Shown piece by piece: positions 34,858-60,628 of a stretch of DNA of 64,000 nt (position 1 is its first letter; each line of letters starts with the position of its first letter). A model generated the notes under the pieces. It had not been told where the DNA came from. It made no database searches and saw only the letters and a program-made list of their open reading frames with translations. The stretch comes from an uncultured bacterium (GTDB taxonomy: Bacteria > Omnitrophota > Omnitrophia > Omnitrophales > Aquincolibacteriaceae): the NCBI GenBank assembly GCA_964606385.1, contig CAZSFZ010000002.1, positions 35,119 through 99,118 on the forward strand, read 5' to 3'. The position numbers and the translations under genes are program-made.

Positions 34858-34903
34858 TTTCTGTCTTCTTTTAAGATTTCCAATTTAAATTCAAAATAAA
34901 ATC

Positions 34904-38033: not shown

Positions 38034-38429
38034 TTATGAGATCTGGTCCCAGGGATCCCCTTTAGGCTTCGCGCCGGCAGGCGGGCTTTTTTTGACATTC
38101 CCGTGAGGGAGCTTGTAGAGGGATTCCAGCTCCATGATCTGGGAATCACGCACCGCTTCCTTCTCGACCCGGCGGACCAAGCGCTTTAAAGCGCCGACGC
38201 GCATGCCGAATTTCTCGATACAAAGCGTGGTCAGCAAACGCGCCAGGATGTTCATGTGGACCTCAAGGTCGGTTAACCGTTCATCCACCCTTTCTCCCTC
38301 TTCGTTGGCTTTACTTACGTCCTTTTTGAGCTCTGCCAGTTTTGTATAGAGGGAAAGGACCTCCTTAAACACCCCGGCTGTTTTATGAGCCCCAGTCCTT
38401 TTGTTTTTAGCGCGCTTCCTCTTGGGCAT
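38034..38429 (-). CDS. Hypothetical small basic coiled-coil protein (131 aa)
   Basis: The ORF has an AGGTGG SD 6 nt upstream of ATG 38429. The N-terminus is MPKRKRAKNKRTGAHK and the rest is helical/coiled-coil. I recognise no family. Confidence 0.45.
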   Translation of the reverse strand: MPKRKRAKNKRTGAHKTAGVFKEVLSLYTKLAELKKDVSKANEEGERVDERLTDLEVHMNILARLLTTLCIEKFGMRVGALKRLVRRVEKEAVRDSQIMELESLYKLPHGNVKKSPPAGAKPKGDPWDQIS

Positions 38430-38449
38430 TTTCACCACCTTTCGATTCA

Positions 38450-38478
38450 AGTCTAACACACAAAACCGTCCTTGGGAA
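38450..38478 (-). promoter_or_regulatory. Weak candidate promoter (TTCCCA-17-TGTTAGACT) for the small hypothetical gene
   Basis: An extended -10-like TGnTAGACT lies at 38450-38458 and a -35-like element at 38473-38478, immediately downstream of the terminator. Confidence 0.3.
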
Positions 38479-38484
38479 AAGGCC

Positions 38485-38522
38485 AAAAAAAAGGGGCAAG
38501 CGATTTAACGCTTGCCCCTTTT
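38485..38522 (-). terminator. Rho-independent terminator after the RDD gene (bidirectional hairpin)
   Basis: The stem ggggcaagcg/cgcttgcccc (10 bp, 6-nt loop) is followed on the minus strand by 8 U. On the plus strand 4 T follow. Confidence 0.6.
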
Positions 38523-38543
38523 CCAGTAAAAACCAGGTTTTAA

Positions 38544-38984
38544 CTAAGCTTCAACAACCTGCGTCTTGGCCCAATTATCCGCGAGACGGTGCCCCTTGAC
38601 GATGAGCATCACGATCTCGATCAGATACCCCAGCACCAGCACGAACGGAATGATCAAAAGGATGTTCCTCAAGAAAGCCTGGAGCCAAGTCACTTTCTCC
38701 CCCGTCAAACTGACGATCTTGACCTTAACCATCGCGCGTCCGGGAGAATAAACCGCATCACGGAACATCAACCAAAGGACGTTCACGATCACAAGGACCA
38801 CGCTGCGGACCACATCCGGTGCCGCCAAAAGAACGATGCCGATCACCACACCAAGAACAATGGGAATGACGACCAGATCGATCAGACCTGCCGCAAATCT
38901 TTTTCCCTTACTTGCTGGAACCAATCCGTCCATCTTTGACTCCTTTCGGTTAAGCAATGCGTCCTTAACAAGACATGTTTTCAC
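38544..38984 (-). CDS. RDD-family membrane protein
   Basis: RFAAGLIDLVVIPIVLGVVIGIVL and further TM helices are present. Length is 146 aa. An internal ATG at 38933 is an alternative start. Confidence 0.6.
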   Translation of the reverse strand: MKTCLVKDALLNRKESKMDGLVPASKGKRFAAGLIDLVVIPIVLGVVIGIVLLAAPDVVRSVVLVIVNVLWLMFRDAVYSPGRAMVKVKIVSLTGEKVTWLQAFLRNILLIIPFVLVLGYLIEIVMLIVKGHRLADNWAKTQVVEA

Positions 38985-39069
38985 ATAAAACTCTATAGAG
39001 AAAACATCCGCCTGTCAAAACTTTTTATTACGAACCGTTAGATTAATAACGGCTTCCTCCCCCCGGAGC

Positions 39070-40224
39070 TTAACACGGCAAAGCGTATCTCCCGTCCTGG
39101 TTCCTTCGGACCTTTTTTGTCAATTCCAGCCTCAGGAGGAGGGATGGCAATTTCGAGGATTCAAGACCCGTGAATTCAAGGATCTCCTCCTGGGCAAGTG
39201 GGCCCTCCTCTTTCAAGAGTTCTTCGATCACACAGCCTTCTTCAACGGACAAAGATACTTCCTCTTTTTCCGGAGAGGTAAAAAAACGCGCCTCTGGGTC
39301 GACAGGATCAGAAGTCCCGTGGAGAACGGGCTCCGCTTTGTTTTCGAGCTTTAACCGGTCCGCCAACGCCAAAAGGATATCCTCCGCTGACTCCGCAAGA
39401 CAGGCGCCCTCCTTGATCAGTTGATGCGTTCCACGGGAAGTGAGCTGGTCTACGGGTCCCGGAAGCGCGAATACTTCCCGCCCTTGCTCGACAGCCTGGT
39501 GCGCCGTGATCAGGGATCCGCTCCGCGAGTGGGCTTCCACCACGAAAGTCGCGTACGAGAGACCGGAAAGGATCCGGTTCCGTCGCGGAAAATTTTCCGG
39601 CAGGGGCGGTGTGCCAAGCGGATATTCGCTCAACACGGTTCCCCGTTCCGAAATCCTTCGAGAAAGGTCCTCGTGTTCCTTGGGATAGACAATGTCGAGG
39701 CCGCATCCTAGAACCGCGATCGTACGGCCGTAGGACACCTGCAACGCCGCCTCATGCGCGATCTGGTCGATCCCGCGCGCGAGACCTGAAACGATCGTAA
39801 GGCCCCTTGCCGCCAATTCCTGAGCGAATTTTTTCGCCTGCATCCGGCCGTAGAAACTTGGGTGCCGCGTCCCCACGATCGCAATGGCATTCCGGTCATT
39901 TTCAACAAGCGTTCCTTTTTTATAAAGGAGAAGCGGAGGATCCGGGATCTCTTTGAGGCCTGCCGGATAATCCGGGTCCGTGTATAGAAGAAAACCGATC
40001 CCCTTTTGGGCGCAGAGCTCCGCTTCTTTTTTCGGATCAAAAGAGCCGCCCTCTTTTATCGATACCGGAAGCTCTTTGAGAAGATTCTCTGCCTCCATAA
40101 GCGTGATGATCTCCCGGGCACACTTCCCTTCCGAGAGCCATATCGCCGCTTTTCGTCTTCCGTCGATCCGGAGCCTGTTCAGAATTAAAAAAGCTTTTAT
40201 TTCGTCCGCCTCTGCGTTGGTCAT
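39070..40224 (-). CDS. dprA: DNA processing protein DprA (Smf)
   Basis: The Rossmann core contains AIVGTRHPSFYG, VSGLARGID and HSRSGSLITA. The C-terminus is winged-helix-like. Length is 384 aa. Confidence 0.85.
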   Translation of the reverse strand: MTNAEADEIKAFLILNRLRIDGRRKAAIWLSEGKCAREIITLMEAENLLKELPVSIKEGGSFDPKKEAELCAQKGIGFLLYTDPDYPAGLKEIPDPPLLLYKKGTLVENDRNAIAIVGTRHPSFYGRMQAKKFAQELAARGLTIVSGLARGIDQIAHEAALQVSYGRTIAVLGCGLDIVYPKEHEDLSRRISERGTVLSEYPLGTPPLPENFPRRNRILSGLSYATFVVEAHSRSGSLITAHQAVEQGREVFALPGPVDQLTSRGTHQLIKEGACLAESAEDILLALADRLKLENKAEPVLHGTSDPVDPEARFFTSPEKEEVSLSVEEGCVIEELLKEEGPLAQEEILEFTGLESSKLPSLLLRLELTKKVRRNQDGRYALPC

Positions 40225-40733
40225 GGATGAAATCCGATCAGGGGCTTTTTCCGAACAGGAGGATTTGCCAGCCTCCGAATGGCCTTATAGAGAACCCGAA
40301 AATTAGCGTCATAATTTATCCGCATTTCCTCGATCTTCCGAGATAGATCTTTATGAGTCGCAAGGATCTCTCTTAATTTTACAAACGCTCGGACCACCTG
40401 CAGACTCATCTGAACCGCTAGCTTTGTATTGAGCACGCTCGCCAGCATCATGGCACCATATTCTGTAAAAGCATAAGGAAGCGCTGTTGAAAATTTGAGC
40501 TGCCGGAGGTGGTCGCAATTTGCGACCACCTCCTTCTTTTCTTTTTGAGTCAAACGGAACATAAAGTCCTGCGGAAAACGATCTTTATTCCTGCGCACTT
40601 GTTCATTGAGCCGCTTGGTGCTAACCCCATAAAGACCCGCAAGGTCAGCATCCAACATAACCTTTTGTCCTCGAAGGAATAGGATTGTTCCGAAGATTCT
40701 TTCGAAGGGGATAGGGCTGTTTTGTCTTTTCAT
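40221..40733 (-). CDS. ORF6N-domain (KilA-N-like, phage antirepressor-type) protein
   Basis: RGQKVMLDADLAGLYGVSTKRLNEQVRRNKDRFPQDFMFRLT is the ORF6N signature. The gene is ~45% GC versus ~58% for its neighbours, and an AT-rich 90-bp spacer lies upstream. Confidence 0.7.
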   Translation of the reverse strand: MKRQNSPIPFERIFGTILFLRGQKVMLDADLAGLYGVSTKRLNEQVRRNKDRFPQDFMFRLTQKEKKEVVANCDHLRQLKFSTALPYAFTEYGAMMLASVLNTKLAVQMSLQVVRAFVKLREILATHKDLSRKIEEMRINYDANFRVLYKAIRRLANPPVRKKPLIGFHP

Positions 40734-40823
40734 GAATATAAACTAATAAAATATTGATAAAAATGCAATAATTATTTTTTAAAACACCCATGAAAAGCGC
40801 TCTATTAGATGGATTGCAGAAGA

Positions 40824-41921
40824 TTACTTCGCGCCGGCGAGGCGGAGGATCGTGCGGACGTTCTCGAGAGGAATGTTCTTTTCGACGGTGACTTTGCCGA
40901 TCCGGCGCGGCAGGACAAAACGCAGGGCCCCCCGGCTTTTTTTCTTATCCGTCATCATGACTTTCAATATGTCCGCGGCTTTCAAATTATACTTTTTAAT
41001 CGAAACCGGAAGCTTCATGGAAACCAAGAGCCTCATCTGACGCCAAGGAAGGTCTTGGGAGCAAAGCCCGAGGTCCGCGGCCAACTGCGCCGCCATCATC
41101 ATGCCGATCGCGACCGCTTCCCCATGCACAAGATCCTGAAAGCGGAGCGCTCCTTCGATCCCATGGGCAAAAGTGTGCCCGTAATTCAGCATGGCGCGTT
41201 GACCTTTTGTTTCGAACTCATCCCGGCTGACCACGCCAGCCTTGGTCTTCGCGCAGGCCAACACGATCTTCTCGGTCGCGCGAATGTCTTTTCGTAAAAT
41301 ATGTTTCGCGTTTTTCTCCAAGAATTTGAAAAGCACCGGATCGCTGATCACGCCGTATTTCACGACCTCTCCCAATGCCGCGCAAAGCTCCCGCGGCGGC
41401 AATGAGCGCAGCGTATCCACGTCCGAGATCACAAGCGCCGGCGGCCAAAAGGCCCCCATAAGATTTTTTCCCTCTTTAAGATCGATCGCGGTTTTTCCGC
41501 CGATCGCGCTGTCGACTTGGGCAAGAAGGGTCGTCGCCACGTTCACATAACGGATCCCGCGCAGATAGACCGCCGCCGCGAACCCCGCGAGGTCACTCAC
41601 GACGCCCCCGCCTACCGCCACGATCCCGTCCCGGCGTTCAAATCCCTTGGCAAGAAGCGCGTACGCAAGGCGGAAAAGTTCCGCGCCTGATTTCGCGATC
41701 TCCCCGTCAGGAAGCGTATGGGAATAGACCTGAAACCCTTTTTTGGAAAGCGAGGCGCTGATCACCTTAAGATAAGGAGCGAGATTTTTCTGGGACACGA
41801 TCATGAGCTTCGCGCCGGGAGTAAAGATCCCGGACGCCAGGGCTCCGGTCCGGGGCAACAAACCCCGGCCGACGCAGATCCCGTAATTCCCTTTCAGGCT
41901 TTTCACCTGGATGGTTTTCAT
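40824..41921 (-). CDS. aroB: 3-dehydroquinate synthase
   Basis: The NAD-binding motif GGGVVSDLAGFAAAVYLRGIRYVNVATTLLAQVDSAIGGK is present. Length is 365 aa. Confidence 0.9.
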   Translation of the reverse strand: MKTIQVKSLKGNYGICVGRGLLPRTGALASGIFTPGAKLMIVSQKNLAPYLKVISASLSKKGFQVYSHTLPDGEIAKSGAELFRLAYALLAKGFERRDGIVAVGGGVVSDLAGFAAAVYLRGIRYVNVATTLLAQVDSAIGGKTAIDLKEGKNLMGAFWPPALVISDVDTLRSLPPRELCAALGEVVKYGVISDPVLFKFLEKNAKHILRKDIRATEKIVLACAKTKAGVVSRDEFETKGQRAMLNYGHTFAHGIEGALRFQDLVHGEAVAIGMMMAAQLAADLGLCSQDLPWRQMRLLVSMKLPVSIKKYNLKAADILKVMMTDKKKSRGALRFVLPRRIGKVTVEKNIPLENVRTILRLAGAK

Positions 41922-54653: not shown

Positions 54654-55661
54654 TCAGTGATTCCTTTCAAGCACGTAATCCGCGAGCTGTTCCAGGCTGG
54701 TTCTAAAAACGGACGGCGGAAAGATCTCGAGCTCGCGTTTGGCCAGCGTCATGAAGGTTCTGGCTTTTCCGAGGGCGTAATCCAGGGCCCCGCTCTTCTG
54801 GAGGGTTTCCCGCAATATCGAAAGACGCCTGGACTGGCTCCGGGAGTAAAGGATGCGGACCACTTTATCGCGCTCCCCGGACGCGAGGCAGTGGATCACC
54901 GGCAGCGTGTAGACCCCTTCTTCAAGGTCCGAACCGAGGGTCTTGCCGAATTCGCTTTCGGTTCCGTAAAAATCCAACGCGTCGTCCGTGATCTGGAACG
55001 CCATCCCGAAAAAAGTCCCGAACCGGCCGAGCGCTTCGGCTTTTTCGGGCTCGATCCCCCAGATGAGCGCCCCGGTCTGAAGCGCGCACGCGAGTAGTGA
55101 AGCGGTCTTCTTTCGAATGATCTCAAGATGAATCTCTTCGGTCAGATTGATGTTCTTTTTTTCGCTGATCTCCTGAACCTCTCCTTCGCAGATCTCGCCG
55201 GCGGTCTTCAGGAAAAGCGGGATGATCTTGTCGTTCCCGTAACGGAAGATCGTGACGATCGCGCGGTCGTGGAAATAATCCCCCGCAAGAACCGCAGCCT
55301 GCGGCCCTGATTTCACATGAAGCGCGGAGACGCCGCGCCGCAAAGGCGCCGAATCAATGATATCGTCATGGATCAATGTCGCAGCGTGAAAGATCTCGGT
55401 CGCGGCAGCCAGATAAAGCTCCGCGGTTTCGTTGCGTTCGGAAGGGATCTCCTGTCCGGGTTTCAGAGAGCGGGCGAGGCCGGCGCCCAGAAGGATCAGG
55501 GCGGGCCTCAGGAGTTTTCCGTTTTTGGAGAAAAAATGGTCGACCATCTCGCGCATCTTGCCGATGGGCGTGTCCAGCGTCTCCCGGACCAGAGAAGGGA
55601 CCCGCAAAATACCGGACTGAATGGGGGCGTAAATGTCTTTAAGCGTCAGCGTGGTTCTCAT
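54654..55661 (-). CDS. ispB: Polyprenyl diphosphate synthase (octaprenyl/heptaprenyl-type trans-IPPS)
   Basis: The first Asp-rich motif is LIHDDIID and the second is ITDDALD. Length is 335 aa. Confidence 0.8.
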   Translation of the reverse strand: MRTTLTLKDIYAPIQSGILRVPSLVRETLDTPIGKMREMVDHFFSKNGKLLRPALILLGAGLARSLKPGQEIPSERNETAELYLAAATEIFHAATLIHDDIIDSAPLRRGVSALHVKSGPQAAVLAGDYFHDRAIVTIFRYGNDKIIPLFLKTAGEICEGEVQEISEKKNINLTEEIHLEIIRKKTASLLACALQTGALIWGIEPEKAEALGRFGTFFGMAFQITDDALDFYGTESEFGKTLGSDLEEGVYTLPVIHCLASGERDKVVRILYSRSQSRRLSILRETLQKSGALDYALGKARTFMTLAKRELEIFPPSVFRTSLEQLADYVLERNH

Positions 55662-55712
55662 AGGAGGCTGTATTATAACAAAAAGGTCTTTTCCCCTGAG
55701 GGATATTTCCGG

Positions 55713-56612
55713 TCACGGATTCTGAGGGTCCAGCGCTTCTGCCAGGCGGAGGAATTGTTCGAGCGAAAGGGTTTCGCCGCGAAGCTTGGGGGGGAAACCG
55801 AGTTTCCCGAAAAGGGCCTCAAGCTCTTCCCGGTTTCGTCGGGGCTTAAGGGCCTGGGTGAACAGCGCCAAAAGGGTCTTACGGCGCTGGCTGAACGCGA
55901 TGCGGACAACCTCGAGAAGAAATGCTTCGTTTTTCACCCCGACAGAACTTTTAAAATCGTACCGGATGACCCGCGACATCACCTCCGGCGGAGGCAGAAA
56001 ACATTTAGGGGAAACGTCAAAAAGGAACTCGGTATCCCCGTAAAGTTTGCCCGTAACGCTCAGGCGTCCATAGTCTTTTTCCCCGGCCTTCGCAGTAAGG
56101 CGTGCCGCGACTTCTTTTTGAAGCATCAAAACGGCGCTGGAAAAGACCTTCGCGTGCTCCACGAGATGAAAAAGAATGGGTGTGCTGATGTAGTAAGGAA
56201 GATTCCCGATCACTTTGATTTTAGGGACACGTCCGTCGGGACACGGACACGCGAAGGGATCCCGTGGCCCGTGGCCCGTGGCCCGTGGCGCCAATAACTC
56301 TGTCAAGTTGGTCTTAAGGATATCAGCATGGATCAATTGAAACCGGTCCGGGTGTTCCGGCAAAAGTTCCCGGGTCAAAATATCAACAAATTTGGGATCC
56401 GTCTCCACCGCTAAAAGCGGAAAGCCCCGGCCCAACACTTCGCGCGTAACGGCTCCGAGCCCCGGTCCGATCTCGAGGACGCGCTCCCCCGGCCGAAGGT
56501 CCAGCGCGTCCACGATCTTGCGGATCGTATTGGGATCCATGAGAAGATGTTGCCCCAAGTGGCCGCGGATCCGGAGGTTGTATTTTTTGAGTAGTTCTAT
56601 TTGCGTGAGCAT
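55713..56612 (-). CDS. rsmA: 16S rRNA (adenine1518/1519-N6)-dimethyltransferase, with a ~18-aa repeat-encoded insertion
   Basis: GQHLLMD, VLEIGPGLGAVT and IGNLPYYISTP are conserved. The inserted ...RATGHGPRDPFACPCPDGRVP... precedes IGNLPY and is encoded by the repeat at 56223-56290. Confidence 0.85.
   Translation of the reverse strand: MLTQIELLKKYNLRIRGHLGQHLLMDPNTIRKIVDALDLRPGERVLEIGPGLGAVTREVLGRGFPLLAVETDPKFVDILTRELLPEHPDRFQLIHADILKTNLTELLAPRATGHGPRDPFACPCPDGRVPKIKVIGNLPYYISTPILFHLVEHAKVFSSAVLMLQKEVAARLTAKAGEKDYGRLSVTGKLYGDTEFLFDVSPKCFLPPPEVMSRVIRYDFKSSVGVKNEAFLLEVVRIAFSQRRKTLLALFTQALKPRRNREELEALFGKLGFPPKLRGETLSLEQFLRLAEALDPQNP
56223..56290. repeat. GGGACACG/GTGGCCC repeat block inside the rsmA coding region
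   Basis: The plus strand reads gggacacgtccgtcgggacacggacacgcgaagggatcc, followed by the heptamer GTGGCCC x3 plus GTGGCGC (56263-56290). A 16-nt block is shared with the ilvC-leuA spacer repeat (46880-46945). Confidence 0.65.
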
Positions 56613-57601
56613 TTCGCGAGAACGGCTGTCTTGGCAAGACGGAGCGCCGCGAGCATCGAAGAGGCGTCCGCTTTGCCCTGGTAGGCGATATCGAAAGCCG
56701 TCCCGTGGTCCGGAGAAGTGCGGATGTAAGGAAGCCCGAGCGTCACGTTCACACCGTCATGGAACGCCACAAGCTTGAACGCCGTGAGGGCCTGATCGTG
56801 ATACATGGCGATCACGCCGTCGTATTTACCGTGATAGGCAGCATGAAAAAGAAGGTCCGCCGAAAAAGGACCGCAAGCGTGAACGCCTTTCCGGCAGGCG
56901 GCGCGGACCGCGGGCGCGATGACTTTTTCTTCTTCACCCCCGAATTCCTTCCCATGAGGATTCAGCGCGCAGACGGCGATCTTTGGTTTTTTGATGGCAA
57001 GCCCGTGCCTGAGCATTTCCTCCGTTAAAAGGATCTTTTCCAGGATCCCTTTGGAGGTGAGATGGGCACTCACTTTTTTGAGCGGTACATGGATCGTGGC
57101 AAGCGTCACGTTCAGACGGGGGCTTACGAACATCATGGCAAAACGCCGGGCCTTGGCCGTTTCGGCGAGGAATTCTGTGTGCCCGATGAATTTTTTATCC
57201 AATAGACGGATCGCAGCCTTGTTCACAGGCGCTGTCACGATCGCATCCACGACACCTTTTTGAGCCAACGAAGCGGCCTTCTCGACCGCGGCAAGCGCCT
57301 GACGACCGTTCTCGCGGCAGAGCTTCCCCGTTTGAAAGGTTCCCCCGCCCGGAAGCTCCTCTGAAATGTCATAAAAATAAATATTCCCGGGACGAAAGGT
57401 TCCGGAAGTGACGGACGAAACGGTTTTGAAAGGAAGCCAGAGACCTGTTTTTTGGCATAGGGTCTTAAACGCCTGACGGGAGCCCAGAAGAAGGTACGCG
57501 AAACGCCTGGAAGGTTTTTCTTTTTGGAGGGCCTTCACGACAATCTCAGGACCAATGCCTCCCGGATCGCCCATCGTCACTGCCAGCACGGGACAGTTCA
57601 T
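56597..57601 (-). CDS. pdxA: 4-hydroxythreonine-4-phosphate dehydrogenase
   Basis: MNCPVLAVTMGDPGGIGPEIVVKAL...TAPVNKAAI...HGTAFDIAYQGKADASSM matches PdxA. The start was trimmed to ATG 57601, giving an ATGA overlap with the surA stop. Confidence 0.85.
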   Translation of the reverse strand: MNCPVLAVTMGDPGGIGPEIVVKALQKEKPSRRFAYLLLGSRQAFKTLCQKTGLWLPFKTVSSVTSGTFRPGNIYFYDISEELPGGGTFQTGKLCRENGRQALAAVEKAASLAQKGVVDAIVTAPVNKAAIRLLDKKFIGHTEFLAETAKARRFAMMFVSPRLNVTLATIHVPLKKVSAHLTSKGILEKILLTEEMLRHGLAIKKPKIAVCALNPHGKEFGGEEEKVIAPAVRAACRKGVHACGPFSADLLFHAAYHGKYDGVIAMYHDQALTAFKLVAFHDGVNVTLGLPYIRTSPDHGTAFDIAYQGKADASSMLAALRLAKTAVLAKCSRK

Positions 57602-58569
57602 TTGATCGAAATGTAAGCCGCCTTTTTCACTTCTTCCATCCAGTCGCGGAACCTTGCGGCGCTTTTCTCCTGGAAAAGGTATCCCGCGATCTGGTCTTTC
57701 ACTTCCTCGAAATAACGGATTTTCTCGGGCTCGCGCGCTTCGATGCGGAACATATGGTAGCCGACCGGTGTTTCCACGATCTCCGTCACCTCGCCGATAG
57801 AGGCCTTGAAGATCACGTTGTCCACCGATTCGATCATGGCGCCGCGGTCGATCCATTCCCCGACACCCCCCTGTTTAGCGTGGCTGTCTTCGGAAAAATC
57901 CTTCACGATCTGGTCGAAATTCCGGTACATGCGGATCTTTTGCGCCAAGAGCTCGATCCGCTGTTTGGCCTCTTCGTCTGTCAGGCCTTTTTCGCGCGCC
58001 TCACCGCTTTTCTTGATCGTAAGCGATTTCACCTGAACGCGTTCCTTGGTCTTGAACTGATCGGGATTATTCTTGTAGAACTCCTCGACTTCGGCCGGAG
58101 ACACGATCACTTTGGAGCGGATCTCCCGGTCCTGGAGCTGGCGGACCATCGCCTGCTTTTTAAGGCGTTCCCGGAGGGCTTTCATGGTCAAGCCTTCCCG
58201 TTCGAGCAATTCATCCAGCGCCTCGGGTTTTTCCATTTTGGATTTGAAGGTCTGGAGCTCTTTTTCAACTTCCTCGTCCTTGACCTCGATCCCCATCGCG
58301 ACCGCTTCCTGGTACACAAGCTTATCCTCGATCATCTGGCTCAACATCTTGTGCCGGATCTCGCCCATCACCTGGACAAGCTCCTGGCCGCTGTATTCCT
58401 TGCTGTATTGTTCATAGAGCGGTCTTAAAAAAGTATCCAGCTCCGCTTGCGTGATGACTTCATCATTAACGACCGCCACCACCCGGTCCAGGAGCTCTTC
58501 CTGGGCCGCATAGGCCGGGGACACGGAGAGCGCCATAGATAATATAAGGAGGAAAATGAGCTTTTTCAT
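57598..58569 (-). CDS. surA: Periplasmic chaperone/peptidyl-prolyl isomerase SurA family
   Basis: The signal peptide is MKKLIFLLILSMALSVSPAYA. An N-terminal chaperone domain and a C-terminal parvulin-like PPIase (GEVTEIVETPVGYHMFRI) follow. The start was trimmed to 58569. Confidence 0.75.
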   Translation of the reverse strand: MKKLIFLLILSMALSVSPAYAAQEELLDRVVAVVNDEVITQAELDTFLRPLYEQYSKEYSGQELVQVMGEIRHKMLSQMIEDKLVYQEAVAMGIEVKDEEVEKELQTFKSKMEKPEALDELLEREGLTMKALRERLKKQAMVRQLQDREIRSKVIVSPAEVEEFYKNNPDQFKTKERVQVKSLTIKKSGEAREKGLTDEEAKQRIELLAQKIRMYRNFDQIVKDFSEDSHAKQGGVGEWIDRGAMIESVDNVIFKASIGEVTEIVETPVGYHMFRIEAREPEKIRYFEEVKDQIAGYLFQEKSAARFRDWMEEVKKAAYISIK

Positions 58570-58632
58570 GAGGCCGGTATTATACAACAAATAGAAGAAC
58601 TCGGGGAACGGGAAGCGTTTAACGCCGGCGGA

Positions 58633-58657
58633 CCACCCCACCTACGAGGTGGGGTGG
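58633..58657. other. GC-rich perfect hairpin (11-bp stem, 3-nt loop) 14 nt downstream of the mfd stop
   Basis: ccaccccacct-acg-aggtggggtgg forms the hairpin. No U-tract follows on either strand. Confidence 0.5.
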
Positions 58658-58671
58658 GTTGATGTTCACTG

Positions 58672-60561
58672 TTAACCGGCTTTCACCTCTTCCACCGATT
58701 TTTTGAGCATCCGGCAATAGAGGTCGAAACCGACGGCGTGGATGAAACCGCTTTGCTCATGTCCGAGGAGGTTCCCGGCGCCGCGGATCTCGAGATCTTC
58801 CATGGCGATCTTGAACCCCGATCCCAGTTGCGTGAATTTTTCGATCGCGTGAAGCCGTTTTTCCGCGTCCTGCGTCATGACCCAATTCTTGGGGATCAGG
58901 AAGTAGGCGTACGCCTGCCGCTTTTCCTTGAACCGGCCCACGCGGCCCCGCAATTGGTAAAGGTCCGCAAGCCCAAAACAGTCGGCGCGGTCCACGATGA
59001 GCGTATTCACATTCGGAATATCGATCCCGGACTCCACAATGCAGGTCGAGATCAGGCAGTCGATCTCGCCTTTCAGGAACCTTTTCATCACATTTTCCAG
59101 CATGTCGACATGCATCTGTCCGTGCATCACACCGAAGCGTACCCCCGGCAAAAGCTTCGTCAACCGGTCATGGACCCGGTCGATCGATTGCACGCGGTTA
59201 TGCACAAAATAGATCTGCCCTTGGCGCGCGAGCTCCCGCTCGATCGCCTGTTTGATGATATTCTCGTGATATTCCATCACAAAGGTCTCGACCGGCATGC
59301 GGCTCTTGGGCGGAGTATCGATCACGGACATGTCGCGCACGCCGAGAAGCGCCATGTGAAGCGTCCGCGGGATCGGCGTGGCCGTAAGCGTCAGCACATC
59401 CACCTGGGTACGCATCTGCTTGAGTTTTTCCTTGTGCCGCACGCCGAAGCGCTGCTCCTCGTCAATGACAACGAGCCCCAGGTCCTTGAAGCGGATATCC
59501 CGGGAAAGAAGCCGGTGCGTTCCGATCACCACATCCGTCGCGCCTTCCTGGAGAGACTTTACAATCGCCTTTTGCTGTTTGGGTGTCTGGAACCTCGAGA
59601 GAAGTTCGACCGTCACGGGGAAATTTTTCGCGCGCTCCTTTAAAAGCACGTAATGCTGCTCCGCCAGGATCGTGGTGGGCACAAGAAAAGCGGCCTGCTT
59701 CCCGCCCATGACCGCCTTGAAAGCCGCCCGCATCGCGACTTCGGTTTTGCCGTACCCCACGTCTCCACAGAGCAGGCGGTCCATCGGACCAGTGGATTCC
59801 ATGTCCTTTTTGACCTCTTCGATCGCGCGTCTTTGCCCCGGCGTTTCTTCGAAAGGGAATTCTGATTCAAATTCCTCCTGCCACGGCGTGTCCTTGGGAA
59901 ACGCGAGCCCTTGAAGCAGGCTGCGCTTGGCCTGGATCTCGAGGAGGTCTTTGGCGACCTTATGGAGCGCCGCCTTCGTCCTTTGCTTGGTCCGTTCCCA
60001 TTCCTGGGTGTTGAGCTTGGTGAGTTTTGGCTCGGCCCCGGACCCGCCAATATACCGCTCCACGGGCTCTTCAAGGGAAAGATAGAGGATCTCGCGTTCG
60101 GCGTATTCGATCGCCATGCAGCGGGTGCGCGCCCCTTGCATCTGAATGACTTTGGTGCCGAGGAAGCGGCCGATGCCGTACTTGAGGTGGACGATGATAT
60201 CGCCGCGTTCAAGGCCTTTCGTACCCGCCACCGGCTCAAAGGTCTCGAACCTTTCCTCCATGCGCCGGAGTTTTTTGCGGAAGAGGTCCGAGATCTCGAT
60301 CAGGAAGACTTCGTCAAACGTGGTCGTGCTTTCACCCGTCGTGAGTGAAAAATCGCGGATCTGGACAGGCACGTCCCCCTGGAACTGAACGCGGACCGGA
60401 AGACGGTAGGTCGCAGGATAGATGTCCACCACCCCGCCGCGCACGGCGAACTCCCCCGGAAGCGCGACATGCTCCCTCTTCTGATAGCGAAGCCCGGCGA
60501 GAAGCTCCTGGAGCGCTTCGATCCCGATCGGGGCGTGGGTCTTAAGGCGTCTGATCTCCAT
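58672..60561 (-). CDS. mfd: Transcription-repair coupling factor Mfd, short form lacking the N-terminal UvrB-homology module (D1a/D2) and the C-terminal D7
   Basis: The protein begins within D1b (GEFAVRGGVVDIYP...VRVQFQGD). It contains the RNAP-interaction domain and the full SF2 translocase (GDVGYGKTEVAMRAAF; DEEQRFGV; QLRGRVGR). It ends at ...LKKSVEEVKAG, where E. coli Mfd continues ~165 aa. Length is 629 aa versus ~1150. Confidence 0.8.
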   Translation of the reverse strand: MEIRRLKTHAPIGIEALQELLAGLRYQKREHVALPGEFAVRGGVVDIYPATYRLPVRVQFQGDVPVQIRDFSLTTGESTTTFDEVFLIEISDLFRKKLRRMEERFETFEPVAGTKGLERGDIIVHLKYGIGRFLGTKVIQMQGARTRCMAIEYAEREILYLSLEEPVERYIGGSGAEPKLTKLNTQEWERTKQRTKAALHKVAKDLLEIQAKRSLLQGLAFPKDTPWQEEFESEFPFEETPGQRRAIEEVKKDMESTGPMDRLLCGDVGYGKTEVAMRAAFKAVMGGKQAAFLVPTTILAEQHYVLLKERAKNFPVTVELLSRFQTPKQQKAIVKSLQEGATDVVIGTHRLLSRDIRFKDLGLVVIDEEQRFGVRHKEKLKQMRTQVDVLTLTATPIPRTLHMALLGVRDMSVIDTPPKSRMPVETFVMEYHENIIKQAIERELARQGQIYFVHNRVQSIDRVHDRLTKLLPGVRFGVMHGQMHVDMLENVMKRFLKGEIDCLISTCIVESGIDIPNVNTLIVDRADCFGLADLYQLRGRVGRFKEKRQAYAYFLIPKNWVMTQDAEKRLHAIEKFTQLGSGFKIAMEDLEIRGAGNLLGHEQSGFIHAVGFDLYCRMLKKSVEEVKAG

Positions 60562-60628
60562 GACGTGTTATTTTAACACAAAATGAAGACACCCATTCCG
60601 CGGAAGAGAGGCAACTTGAAGAGGAGAA

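Follow-up and report, generated by a model that had tools for sequence, protein, structure and literature searches.

The closest described counterparts of the gene examined here come from phage defence and from phage regulation. In E. coli, a representative of PDC-S05, a single-gene candidate phage-defence system of PADLOC, cuts the plating of phages T7 and T5 about 1000-fold and also protects against T4 (bioRxiv 10.1101/2024.09.26.614923). ORF6N domains are also found at the N-termini of antirepressors of phages and integrative and conjugative elements (ICEs), as are KilA-N, Bro-N, Rha and AntA domains, gp42 of Listeria phage A118 being one example. Here, we describe an ORF6N-domain gene in a 64,000-nucleotide stretch of DNA from an uncultured Omnitrophota bacterium (contig CAZSFZ010000002.1 of assembly GCA_964606385.1; the whole stretch is called the window, and positions are counted along it), where it lies between aroB and dprA. 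This accessory gene is intact and of ancient acquisition. It encodes a stand-alone ORF6N (KilA-N-type) protein and was inserted precisely where the native dprA promoter meets the dprA start codon. Its coding sequence contains a stem-loop that is conserved throughout the family and apparently previously undescribed.

The window protein is strongly matched by the PADLOC hidden Markov models of PDC-S05 (PDLC04856, E = 5e-52, 174 bits; PDLC04869, E = 1.3e-45; PDLC04849, E = 7.7e-41). Like PDC-S05, it is encoded by a single small gene, and its homologues often lie in or beside restriction-modification (R-M) and CRISPR loci. In contrast, the tested PDC-S05 representative bears a Virulence_RhuM domain (bioRxiv 10.1101/2024.09.26.614923), for which the window protein gives no match at E up to 10; the window copy sits in a housekeeping operon rather than a defence island; and an embedded stem-loop is not mentioned in the PDC-S05 literature searched. 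The N-terminal ORF6N domain is shared with the antirepressors of phages and ICEs, and the longer ORF6N proteins of viral contigs L176-L182 carry the same stem-loop (L labels denote comparison loci from other genomes or contigs, P labels database proteins). Unlike those antirepressors, the window protein lacks a C-terminal ANT, KilAC or ORF6C domain at E up to 10, has no prophage context and belongs to a subfamily that is rare in phage collections. The gene for the AntA-type A118 gp42 has no such palindrome.

Operators and binding sites within coding regions include lac O2 in lacZ, gal OI in galE and parS in spo0J/parB. The ORF6N element resembles these as a dyad-symmetric sequence in an open reading frame (ORF), and parS likewise lies inside the gene of its own binding protein. 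Unlike them, it keeps a fixed codon position in a family of more than 30,000 clusters, changes in a compensatory manner and determines the peptide and codons locally, which points to base pairing rather than simple half-site recognition. A second likeness is to repetitive extragenic palindromes and bacterial interspersed mosaic elements (REP/BIME) with their associated tyrosine transposases (RAYTs), and to integron attC sites: all are short palindromes with a conserved core and covarying arms, sometimes arranged in small arrays and tied to one protein family. ORF6N proteins differ in having neither HUH/Y1 motifs nor an integrase, and their palindromes are not dispersed over the genome (there is one in the 64-kb window), the primary copy being in the coding sequence. 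The locus also differs from Shosta/PsyrTA, in which a DprA-like protein is inherited together with a phosphoribosyltransferase or RecQ-like toxin, since its upstream gene encodes an ORF6N protein rather than a phosphoribosyltransferase and the ORF6N-dprA pair is not co-inherited.

An earlier interpretation of this DNA, made from the letters alone (the sequence-only reading), had described the gene and its AT-rich spacer as a horizontally acquired single-gene remnant beside a competence gene. Its observation is confirmed and its interpretation partly supported, as set out below.

A stem-loop conserved within ORF6N coding sequences

The window palindrome, GGAGGTGGTCGCAAATTGCGACCACCTCC (40505-40533), is the longest perfect inverted repeat in the window, where no other copy occurs within three mismatches. 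It encodes the peptide K-E-V-V-A-N-C-D-H-L-R, and its predicted folding energy is -27.3 kcal/mol as RNA and -17.1 kcal/mol as DNA (z about -5.3). A perfect stem-loop of 25-33 nt is present at the same codon position in nearly every homologue, over a range of 33-100% identity. Across 105 distinct homologous genes, viral and plasmid copies included, the best palindrome falls at the same place; of the 92 genes in which both it and the F-T-E-x-G motif can be located, 86 have it 15-18 codons upstream of that motif.

Several features indicate that base pairing is what is conserved. Firstly, in 85 distinct 41-nt segments, 90.7% of cells are paired, compared with about 37% (34-47%) when the partner column is slid, and changes on both sides occur in 12 of 14 pairs, giving 201 double-change cells against 65 in shuffles. 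The stems comprise 38 arm types; mismatches make up 3%, among them 7 G.T and 14 A.C in 935 stem cells, and the other 97% are strictly Watson-Crick. The CA...TG bases that close the three central nucleotides are at least 90% conserved, and those three nucleotides vary most. Secondly, the encoded peptide tracks the arms, reading EVVANCDHL, LRSQFATSK, LRCQIGTSR, DLMLQNATSK or FLRSNNLTAN. Finally, synonymous codons are fixed to the pairing-compatible choice in the 55 genes that share the sequence VV[AT]xCDH: GTG for the first valine in 54/55 (background 0.35), GTC for the second in 53/55 (0.29), GCA for alanine in 40/41 (0.18), ACA for threonine in 14/14 (0.21), and GAC for aspartate and CAC for histidine in 55/55 each (0.44 and 0.55). 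In the same genes, the cysteine codon, TGC or TGT, covaries with alanine GCA or threonine ACA. An ORF6N gene on a Bacteroides ovatus plasmid (L189, 3986-4537) encodes the palindrome motif twice, as CLRSQIATL and NLRSQTVTSR.

The stem-loop might instead work at the level of the sense mRNA, where it could pause ribosomes, be processed by RNase III or otherwise, or stabilise the transcript, and would not be a site for the ORF6N protein. The very stable predicted RNA hairpin, the covariation as a signal of pairing and the loop-like variability of the three central nucleotides would all suit such a role, and the palindromes upstream of the ORF6N gene at L194 lie between co-oriented genes and may share their transcript. 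A hairpin in the sense mRNA is nonetheless disfavoured because G.T (G.U in RNA) is not enriched over A.C. In addition, the sense strand has no U-tract 3' of the stem, free-standing copies are sometimes found downstream of the gene (as in L152 and L158), and no Rfam family reaches its threshold in the window or in 19 ORF6N loci. We consider a function in the sense mRNA unlikely.

Three further candidates were set aside. A duplex operator whose symmetry a dimer would recognise survives as no more than a sub-option, as the arms swap G:C and A:T freely yet remain complementary and the three central bases are least constrained, so that pairing fits better. An antisense intrinsic terminator, formed by the palindrome and a T-rich tail on the plus strand, was rejected as a general role, the T-run not being conserved in other subfamilies. 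Listeria rli61, which has a similar hairpin and gave the best Rfam match (antisense, 24.6 bits against a threshold of 50), was a dead end: it is not in phage A118, and no mention was found in the literature searched. Searches of the literature on ORF6N, on KilA-N with palindromes and on intragenic palindromes likewise yielded no description of the stem-loop.

The ORF6N protein and its relatives

The 170-residue protein matches the Pfam ORF6N family with E = 1.6e-30 (105.6 bits against a cut-off of 27.8), residues 17-100 aligning with positions 3-86 of the 86 in the profile. The conserved motifs YGV-T--LN--V-RN--RFP-DFMF and FTE-G are present, and an alignment of 38 sequences has 37 invariant columns, including Y35, G36, R48, N49, R52, F53, P54, F89, E91 and G93. 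Apart from a sub-threshold Rha match, no further domain appears at E up to 10, and no solved structure is matched by sequence. An AlphaFold2 model places long helices at residues 104-126 and 128-156.

Relatives are abundant: among representatives clustered at 50% identity, 30,689 reach E = 1e-3 or better and 13,862 reach E = 1e-10 or better. Homologues with 62-68% identity occur in Nitrospirota, Desulfobacterota, Planctomycetota, Acidobacteriota and Zixibacteria. The sequence-only reading regarded ORF6N domains as typical of phages and conjugative elements. This subfamily does not fit that description: 4 of 50,697 phage records include a member, and palindromes of its type turn up on 2 of 2.9 million viral contigs. 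Family members are present on 25 plasmids. One of these, a 2955-bp Segatella copri plasmid (L187, NZ_CP152354.1), consists of rep and an ORF6N gene only, the latter carrying the palindrome GAGGTGGTCGAAATTTTCGACCAC.

The genomic company of the family is heterogeneous. The 102 proteins encoded next to 66-67 homologues represent 96 Pfam families, most commonly serine recombinases (4), HsdM (3) and integrases (3). Cas3 also adjoins a homologue, and one homologue lies between mod and res of a type III R-M system. DprA is not among the 102 neighbours, nor does tblastn find it in 100 loci. A general ORF6N-DprA linkage was rejected on these grounds; the adjacency to dprA that the sequence-only reading pointed out is specific to this lineage.

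History and composition of the aroB-dprA junction

Junction loci were gathered by exact-protein look-ups and by a DprA-based scan of one genome per GTDB species, and 21 Omnitrophota loci share the order aroK-aroB-[x]-dprA-RDD-topA. Whether the same gene stands at this junction across the lineage receives a mixed answer. Orthologues with 76-81% identity and the same ATGA overlap of ORF6N stop and dprA start are present in at least five other species (L008, L010, L012 (= L006/L007), L015 (= L003) and L024), and no relative closer than 81% identity was found in the databases searched. Two loci carry another ORF6N allele, 45% identical in L017 and 40% identical in L025; nine retain only a scar of about 50 nt (L009, L011, L013, L014, L016, L018, L019, L021 and L022); and in three more distant relatives (L020, L026 and L029) the promoter leads straight into the dprA ATG. 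The ATGA overlap is seen in L003, L006, L008, L010, L012, L015, L017 and L024.

The scar consists of the first 10-11 ORF6N codons (MKKRSC.IP..) joined to the last 6-7, and several loci keep the ATGA end. At 35-41 of 54 positions it agrees with a modelled deletion product, a closer match than any of 200 shuffles gave, and some scars now contain stop codons. The N-terminal S-x-I-P-x-E motif that the scar retains is common to the ORF6N family, and the scar therefore derives from the gene and not the reverse. Its presence means that the lack of ORF6N in scar-bearing relatives is a loss and not the original state. In L017, a fragment of a third ORF6N gene (NLRSQIVTSSWGGRGYYL, then a stop) lies between the promoter and the L017 ORF6N gene.

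Among the six orthologues, the ratio of nonsynonymous to synonymous substitutions (dN/dS) is 0.03-0.07, with dS above 1 (saturated, as for aroB) and dN of 0.05-0.14 compared with 0.06-0.125 for aroB. Orthologues, scars, alleles and dN/dS together show a gene that is old at this site, functional and repeatedly lost or replaced. The common ancestor of a genus-level Omnitrophota group already had it; afterwards it stayed under purifying selection in some species, including this one, suffered one in-frame internal deletion in others, and was replaced by other ORF6N alleles in two.

The gene is compositionally distinct. Its GC content (0.458) and its GC content at third codon positions (GC3, 0.480) are the lowest among the roughly 57 ORFs of the window, the remainder spanning 0.51-0.59 and 0.57-0.79, respectively. 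Only 0.5% of 513-nt windows are equally GC-poor, and the minimum falls inside the ORF6N region. By synonymous-codon score (z = -4.8), it is the most atypical of 49 window genes, so codon usage does distinguish it from the others. The adjoining 90-bp spacer, with a GC content of 0.244 (75.6% AT), is the AT-richest 90 nt of the window, and 0.1% of 90-nt windows are equally AT-rich. The sequence-only reading was thus right to single out a low-GC ORF6N gene and an AT-rich spacer between dprA and aroB, and its picture of an accessory gene of foreign type and atypical composition stands; the gene is also patchy among close relatives. The flanking genes dprA and aroB are 55-57% GC rather than the 58% or so it gave, and its statement that intergenic space is almost lacking was too strong, as over 20 gaps between genes of the window measure 30 bp or more, and two of these are as AT-rich as the spacer (2479-2561, GC 0.25; 34858-34903, GC 0.20).

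The GC3 of the orthologues is merely 0.01-0.09 below that of their neighbouring genes, compared with 0.18 for the window copy, which is the most divergent allele among the orthologues. Its low GC3 may stem either from allele replacement from a lower-GC donor or from drift. Adjoining it at 38034-40224, dprA, the RDD-family gene and a 150-residue ORF have codon-usage scores of 0.05-0.07 against a mean of 0.25; only the ORF6N gene and the gene at 56597-57856 score lower than these three.

The history bears directly on the proposal that a prophage or conjugative element recently left this single gene behind as a remnant, now decaying beside dprA. It does have the lowest GC, the lowest GC3 and the most atypical codon usage in the window, its domain is also found in phage antirepressors (PHROGs matches), and many close relatives lack it. 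A decaying newcomer is hard to reconcile with an intact ORF at such low dN/dS, with orthologues of saturated dS at the same junction in at least five species, and with the deletion scar in gene-less relatives. Nor do the surroundings or the distribution fit, given a subfamily nearly missing from phage collections and a neighbourhood that, within ±10 kb, holds no phage or ICE genes and none of their regulatory setting, all neighbours being housekeeping genes (aroE, pilD, aroC, aroK, aroB, dprA, the RDD gene, topA, the xerC-like gene and lipid A genes). We judge the remnant explanation highly improbable, and neither the remnant state proposed by the sequence-only reading nor a one-off, recent acquisition survives the comparison.

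Promoter region and probable coupling to dprA

The spacer can be aligned with its counterparts between aroB and dprA in 17 relatives, whether or not they carry ORF6N. Throughout these 18 loci of all three types, TTGATT is followed after 17 nt by TATGCT and after a further 6-7 nt by the first ATG, except in L026, the most distant locus of the alignment, where the blocks do not line up; the window versions are TTGCAT and TAGTTT. Depending on the locus, this first ATG is the start of ORF6N, of the scar or of dprA, and no Shine-Dalgarno sequence precedes it in the aligned spacers. Because the same promoter-like sequence precedes dprA in relatives without ORF6N, the AT-rich spacer is the promoter region native to dprA and, contrary to the sequence-only reading, was not brought in by the gene. 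The position of the -10 element 6 nt before the ATG, together with the missing Shine-Dalgarno sequence, suggests a leaderless mRNA, and ORF6N and dprA are probably transcribed on such an mRNA from the conserved promoter. Translation of dprA would be coupled to that of ORF6N through the ATGA overlap.

Other first-in-operon genes of the window likewise lack a Shine-Dalgarno sequence and have a -10-like box, TATAAT or TAAAAT, placed 7-9 nt ahead of the ATG (55662-55690 for the gene whose end is at 55661, and 60562-60590 for the one with its end at 60561); a Shine-Dalgarno-like motif is present in only 23 of 49 window genes. Leaderless starts may be common in this genome.

Alternatively, the protein could serve DprA and natural transformation specifically, as a regulator or partner brought to the front of the dprA operon. 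In its favour, all six ORF6N-positive species have the ATGA coupling, three different ORF6N alleles have been kept at this one place, and dprA, the RDD gene and the next gene have low codon-usage scores too. On the other side, in at least 14 related species the same promoter drives dprA with no ORF6N in between, DprA is missing from the neighbourhoods of homologues elsewhere, and the usual company of the family is R-M, CRISPR and recombinase genes. A dedicated link to DprA is accordingly improbable.

Free-standing palindromes and possible signs of mobility

Palindromes of the ORF6N type are restricted to ORF6N genes and the DNA directly beside them, with 93 inside genes and about 30 within 300 nt. 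Their density is about 1 per 0.6 kb in ORF6N genes, compared with about 1 per 22 kb for palindromes of any kind in control loci. Most free-standing copies have no coding homology around them. At L194 3560-4030 (also L195 100-400), six different, nearly perfect palindromes are present besides the in-gene one, in a 440-nt gap between a type III R-M methylase gene and the ORF6N gene.

Other arrangements are more varied. Two or three tandem free-standing palindromes with differing arms adjoin ORF6N genes, downstream or upstream and with no detectable coding homology around them, at L152 3038-3129, L139 435-473, L156 4724-4798 and L178 4784-4878. In L189, an ORF6N-type palindrome (3344) lies upstream of the gene between two integrase gene fragments, and a JAB/RadC-type gene and ardA lie downstream. 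An A-type palindrome, GAGGTGGTCGCAATTTGTGACCACC, occurs on a viral contig (L192 4994-5016) with no ORF6N gene detectable in the 5.9 kb examined. The N-terminal extensions of P0057, P0072 and P0101, such as MKNLKSQIVTSK, are translations of an upstream free-standing palindrome and probably reflect mis-called starts. Some bacterial group II introns target stem-loops, and on another viral contig (L183 1638-3740) an ORF6N gene is broken at about the stem-loop position by an opposite-strand group II intron (RF00029, RF01999), with half an ORF6N-type palindrome 3' of the intron.

These patterns bear on the main rival to the interpretation we favour, namely that the gene is a selfish, mobile single-gene cassette. 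Its stem-loop would then be the site of recombination or insertion, recognised in trans by a recombinase, an HUH enzyme or intron-like machinery; the host would gain nothing from the protein, and the position before dprA would be a site preference. Mobility of this kind would explain why homologues of 62-68% identity are spread across phyla amid heterogeneous neighbours, why three different alleles or fragments have colonised the same junction, and why palindrome-bearing fragments lie directly upstream of intact genes. It would likewise suit the near-identical copies of L098 and L101, where homology extends about 120 nt ahead of the ORF and 10 nt past it before giving way to differing flanks, the mosaic genes implied by a correlation of only 0.48 between the identities of 5' and 3' gene halves, and the break at the L183 stem-loop beside a group II intron. 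Recombinases are the commonest neighbours, yet make up only 7 of 102. No recombinase or nuclease is consistently linked to the family, and the protein itself has no catalytic domain. No terminal repeat or target-site duplication was found beyond the ATGA microhomology, including in the L098-L101 comparison, and long-term purifying selection at an aroB-like level in a fixed chromosomal position argues for a function at the level of the host. We therefore hold a purely selfish cassette to be a rather unlikely explanation.

Locus layout and other features of the window

On the minus strand, the genes run leuA, aroE, pilD, aroC, aroK, aroB, the spacer, the ORF6N ORF and dprA, followed 3' of dprA by an RDD-family gene, a 150-residue ORF, topA, a xerC-like recombinase gene and lipid A genes (Table 1). 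The order from dprA to topA and the xerC-like gene is kept in relatives, and the synteny of aroB in all of them.

Table 1. Coordinates of the ORF6N gene, its embedded and flanking elements and the adjacent genes in the window
Feature	Position	Strand	Basis or remarks
ORF6N-domain gene, 170 aa	40221..40733	-	Pfam PF10543; N-terminal ORF6N domain at residues 17-100, then long C-terminal helices
ATGA overlap of ORF6N TGA stop and dprA ATG start	40221..40224	-	Direct sequence reading
Perfect 29-nt palindrome/stem-loop within the ORF6N ORF	40505..40533	unstranded	14-nt arms, centre 40519
AT-rich spacer, dprA-operon promoter region	40734..40823	-	GC 0.244; alignment with relatives
Candidate -35 hexamer TTGCAT (relatives TTGATT)	40763..40768	-	Conserved alignment columns
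Candidate -10 hexamer TAGTTT (relatives TATGCT)	40740..40745	-	Conservation; 17 nt past -35, 6 nt ahead of ATG
dprA, downstream cistron	39070..40224	-	TIGR00732, 255 bits against a cut-off of 191; Pfam DNA_processg_A and DprA_WH
aroB, last gene of the aroE-pilD-aroC-aroK-aroB block	40824..41921	-	TIGR01357, 347 bits

The dprA-topA interval varies across relatives and contains, by species, a GIY-YIG gene, a 23S-rRNA intervening-sequence (IVS) four-helix-bundle gene or a DUF7544 gene (L003 7949-8239; L006 7832-8227 and 8933-10132; L008 8427-9611). These species-variable inserts mark the whole dprA-topA region as a hotspot for small accessory genes. The window DprA also matches the PADLOC models for ShosA (E = 2e-67) and PsyrA, and this was dismissed as a cross-match of the DprA fold, as the TIGR00732 equivalog cut-off is passed and the order from dprA to topA is kept; automated defence annotation could mislabel the gene accordingly.

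Further along the window, 815 nt at 57857-58671 hold no long minus-strand ORF, tRNA or Rfam match. A perfect inverted repeat with 11-nt arms (CCACCCCACCT/AGGTGGGGTGG) is present at 58633-58657, just upstream of the gene at 58672-60561.

Proposed mechanism and role

The interpretation that we consider somewhat more probable than its alternatives taken together is that of an old, intact ORF6N insert heading the dprA operon, with autoregulation through its protein and stem-loop and a role in genetic conflict. ORF6N would be transcribed from the conserved dprA promoter, probably without a leader, and translated as the first cistron, passing translation on to dprA at the ATGA overlap. The protein is predicted, from its domain, its modelled helices and a weak fold resemblance to dimeric DNA binders of the winged-helix and MerR-like kinds, to be a dimerising nucleic-acid-binding protein. 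Its cognate site would be the conserved stem-loop with its CA(NNN)TG apex in its own coding sequence, with extra copies at many other loci. Binding there would give autoregulation and, at this locus, would also affect expression of the downstream dprA. The cellular role is most likely conflict-related, whether phage defence of the PDC-S05 kind or control of mobile DNA, rather than one in competence, and the position ahead of dprA is probably a permissive accident.

Several points weigh against this interpretation. The covariation shows pairing and not the molecule that pairs, so that DNA and antisense RNA cannot be told apart, and the choice of the best palindrome in each gene as its centre introduces a mild selection bias into the pairing statistics. 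A factor other than the ORF6N protein could read the stem-loop. The AlphaFold2 model has moderate confidence (predicted local distance difference test score, pLDDT, of 72), and a Foldseek search of the PDB gives no match at E below 0.3, with vague winged-helix and MerR-like similarity. As to a defensive role, the RhuM domain of the tested PDC-S05 protein is missing from the window protein, and the ORF6N locus is outside any defence island. The promoter and leaderless start are read from conservation, since a generic promoter consensus scan gave no call at the candidate site. The neighbour-joining species tree (AroB, TopA, DprA) is star-like and uninformative for timing gain and loss, so that a single gain with a single deletion is inseparable from the spread of an allele by recombination. 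Finally, the GC3 of the window ORF6N gene is about 10 points under that of its orthologues.

A broader proposal, which we offer tentatively and consider possible rather than probable, is that ORF6N genes in general are self-contained modules of a protein and a cis-acting stem-loop, with a 12-14-bp stem at a fixed codon position, satellite copies in the flanks and the hairpin as cognate target of the protein. Such modules might use the hairpin for autoregulation, or for sensing or marking DNA or RNA.

Implications for the locus and the family

The locus itself represents ordinary, if neat, accessory-gene turnover within a known family. It provides a clean example of a small accessory gene wired into a core operon without disturbing it: the insert probably took over the leaderless start position and passed translation on to dprA by the ATGA overlap, and relatives have kept, deleted or swapped it. 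The part worth following up is the family-wide embedded stem-loop. The apparent protein motif EVVANCDHL / LRSQIVTS of this family is shaped by nucleic-acid pairing and not by protein function. If the module proposal is true, the stem-loop would represent an undescribed class of gene-embedded structured element, shared by a family of candidate defence or antirepressor proteins that numbers over 30,000 clusters at 50% identity. ORF6N/PDC-S05 proteins are abundant and annotated only as 'domain-containing', and the stem-loop offers a testable handle on their mechanism.

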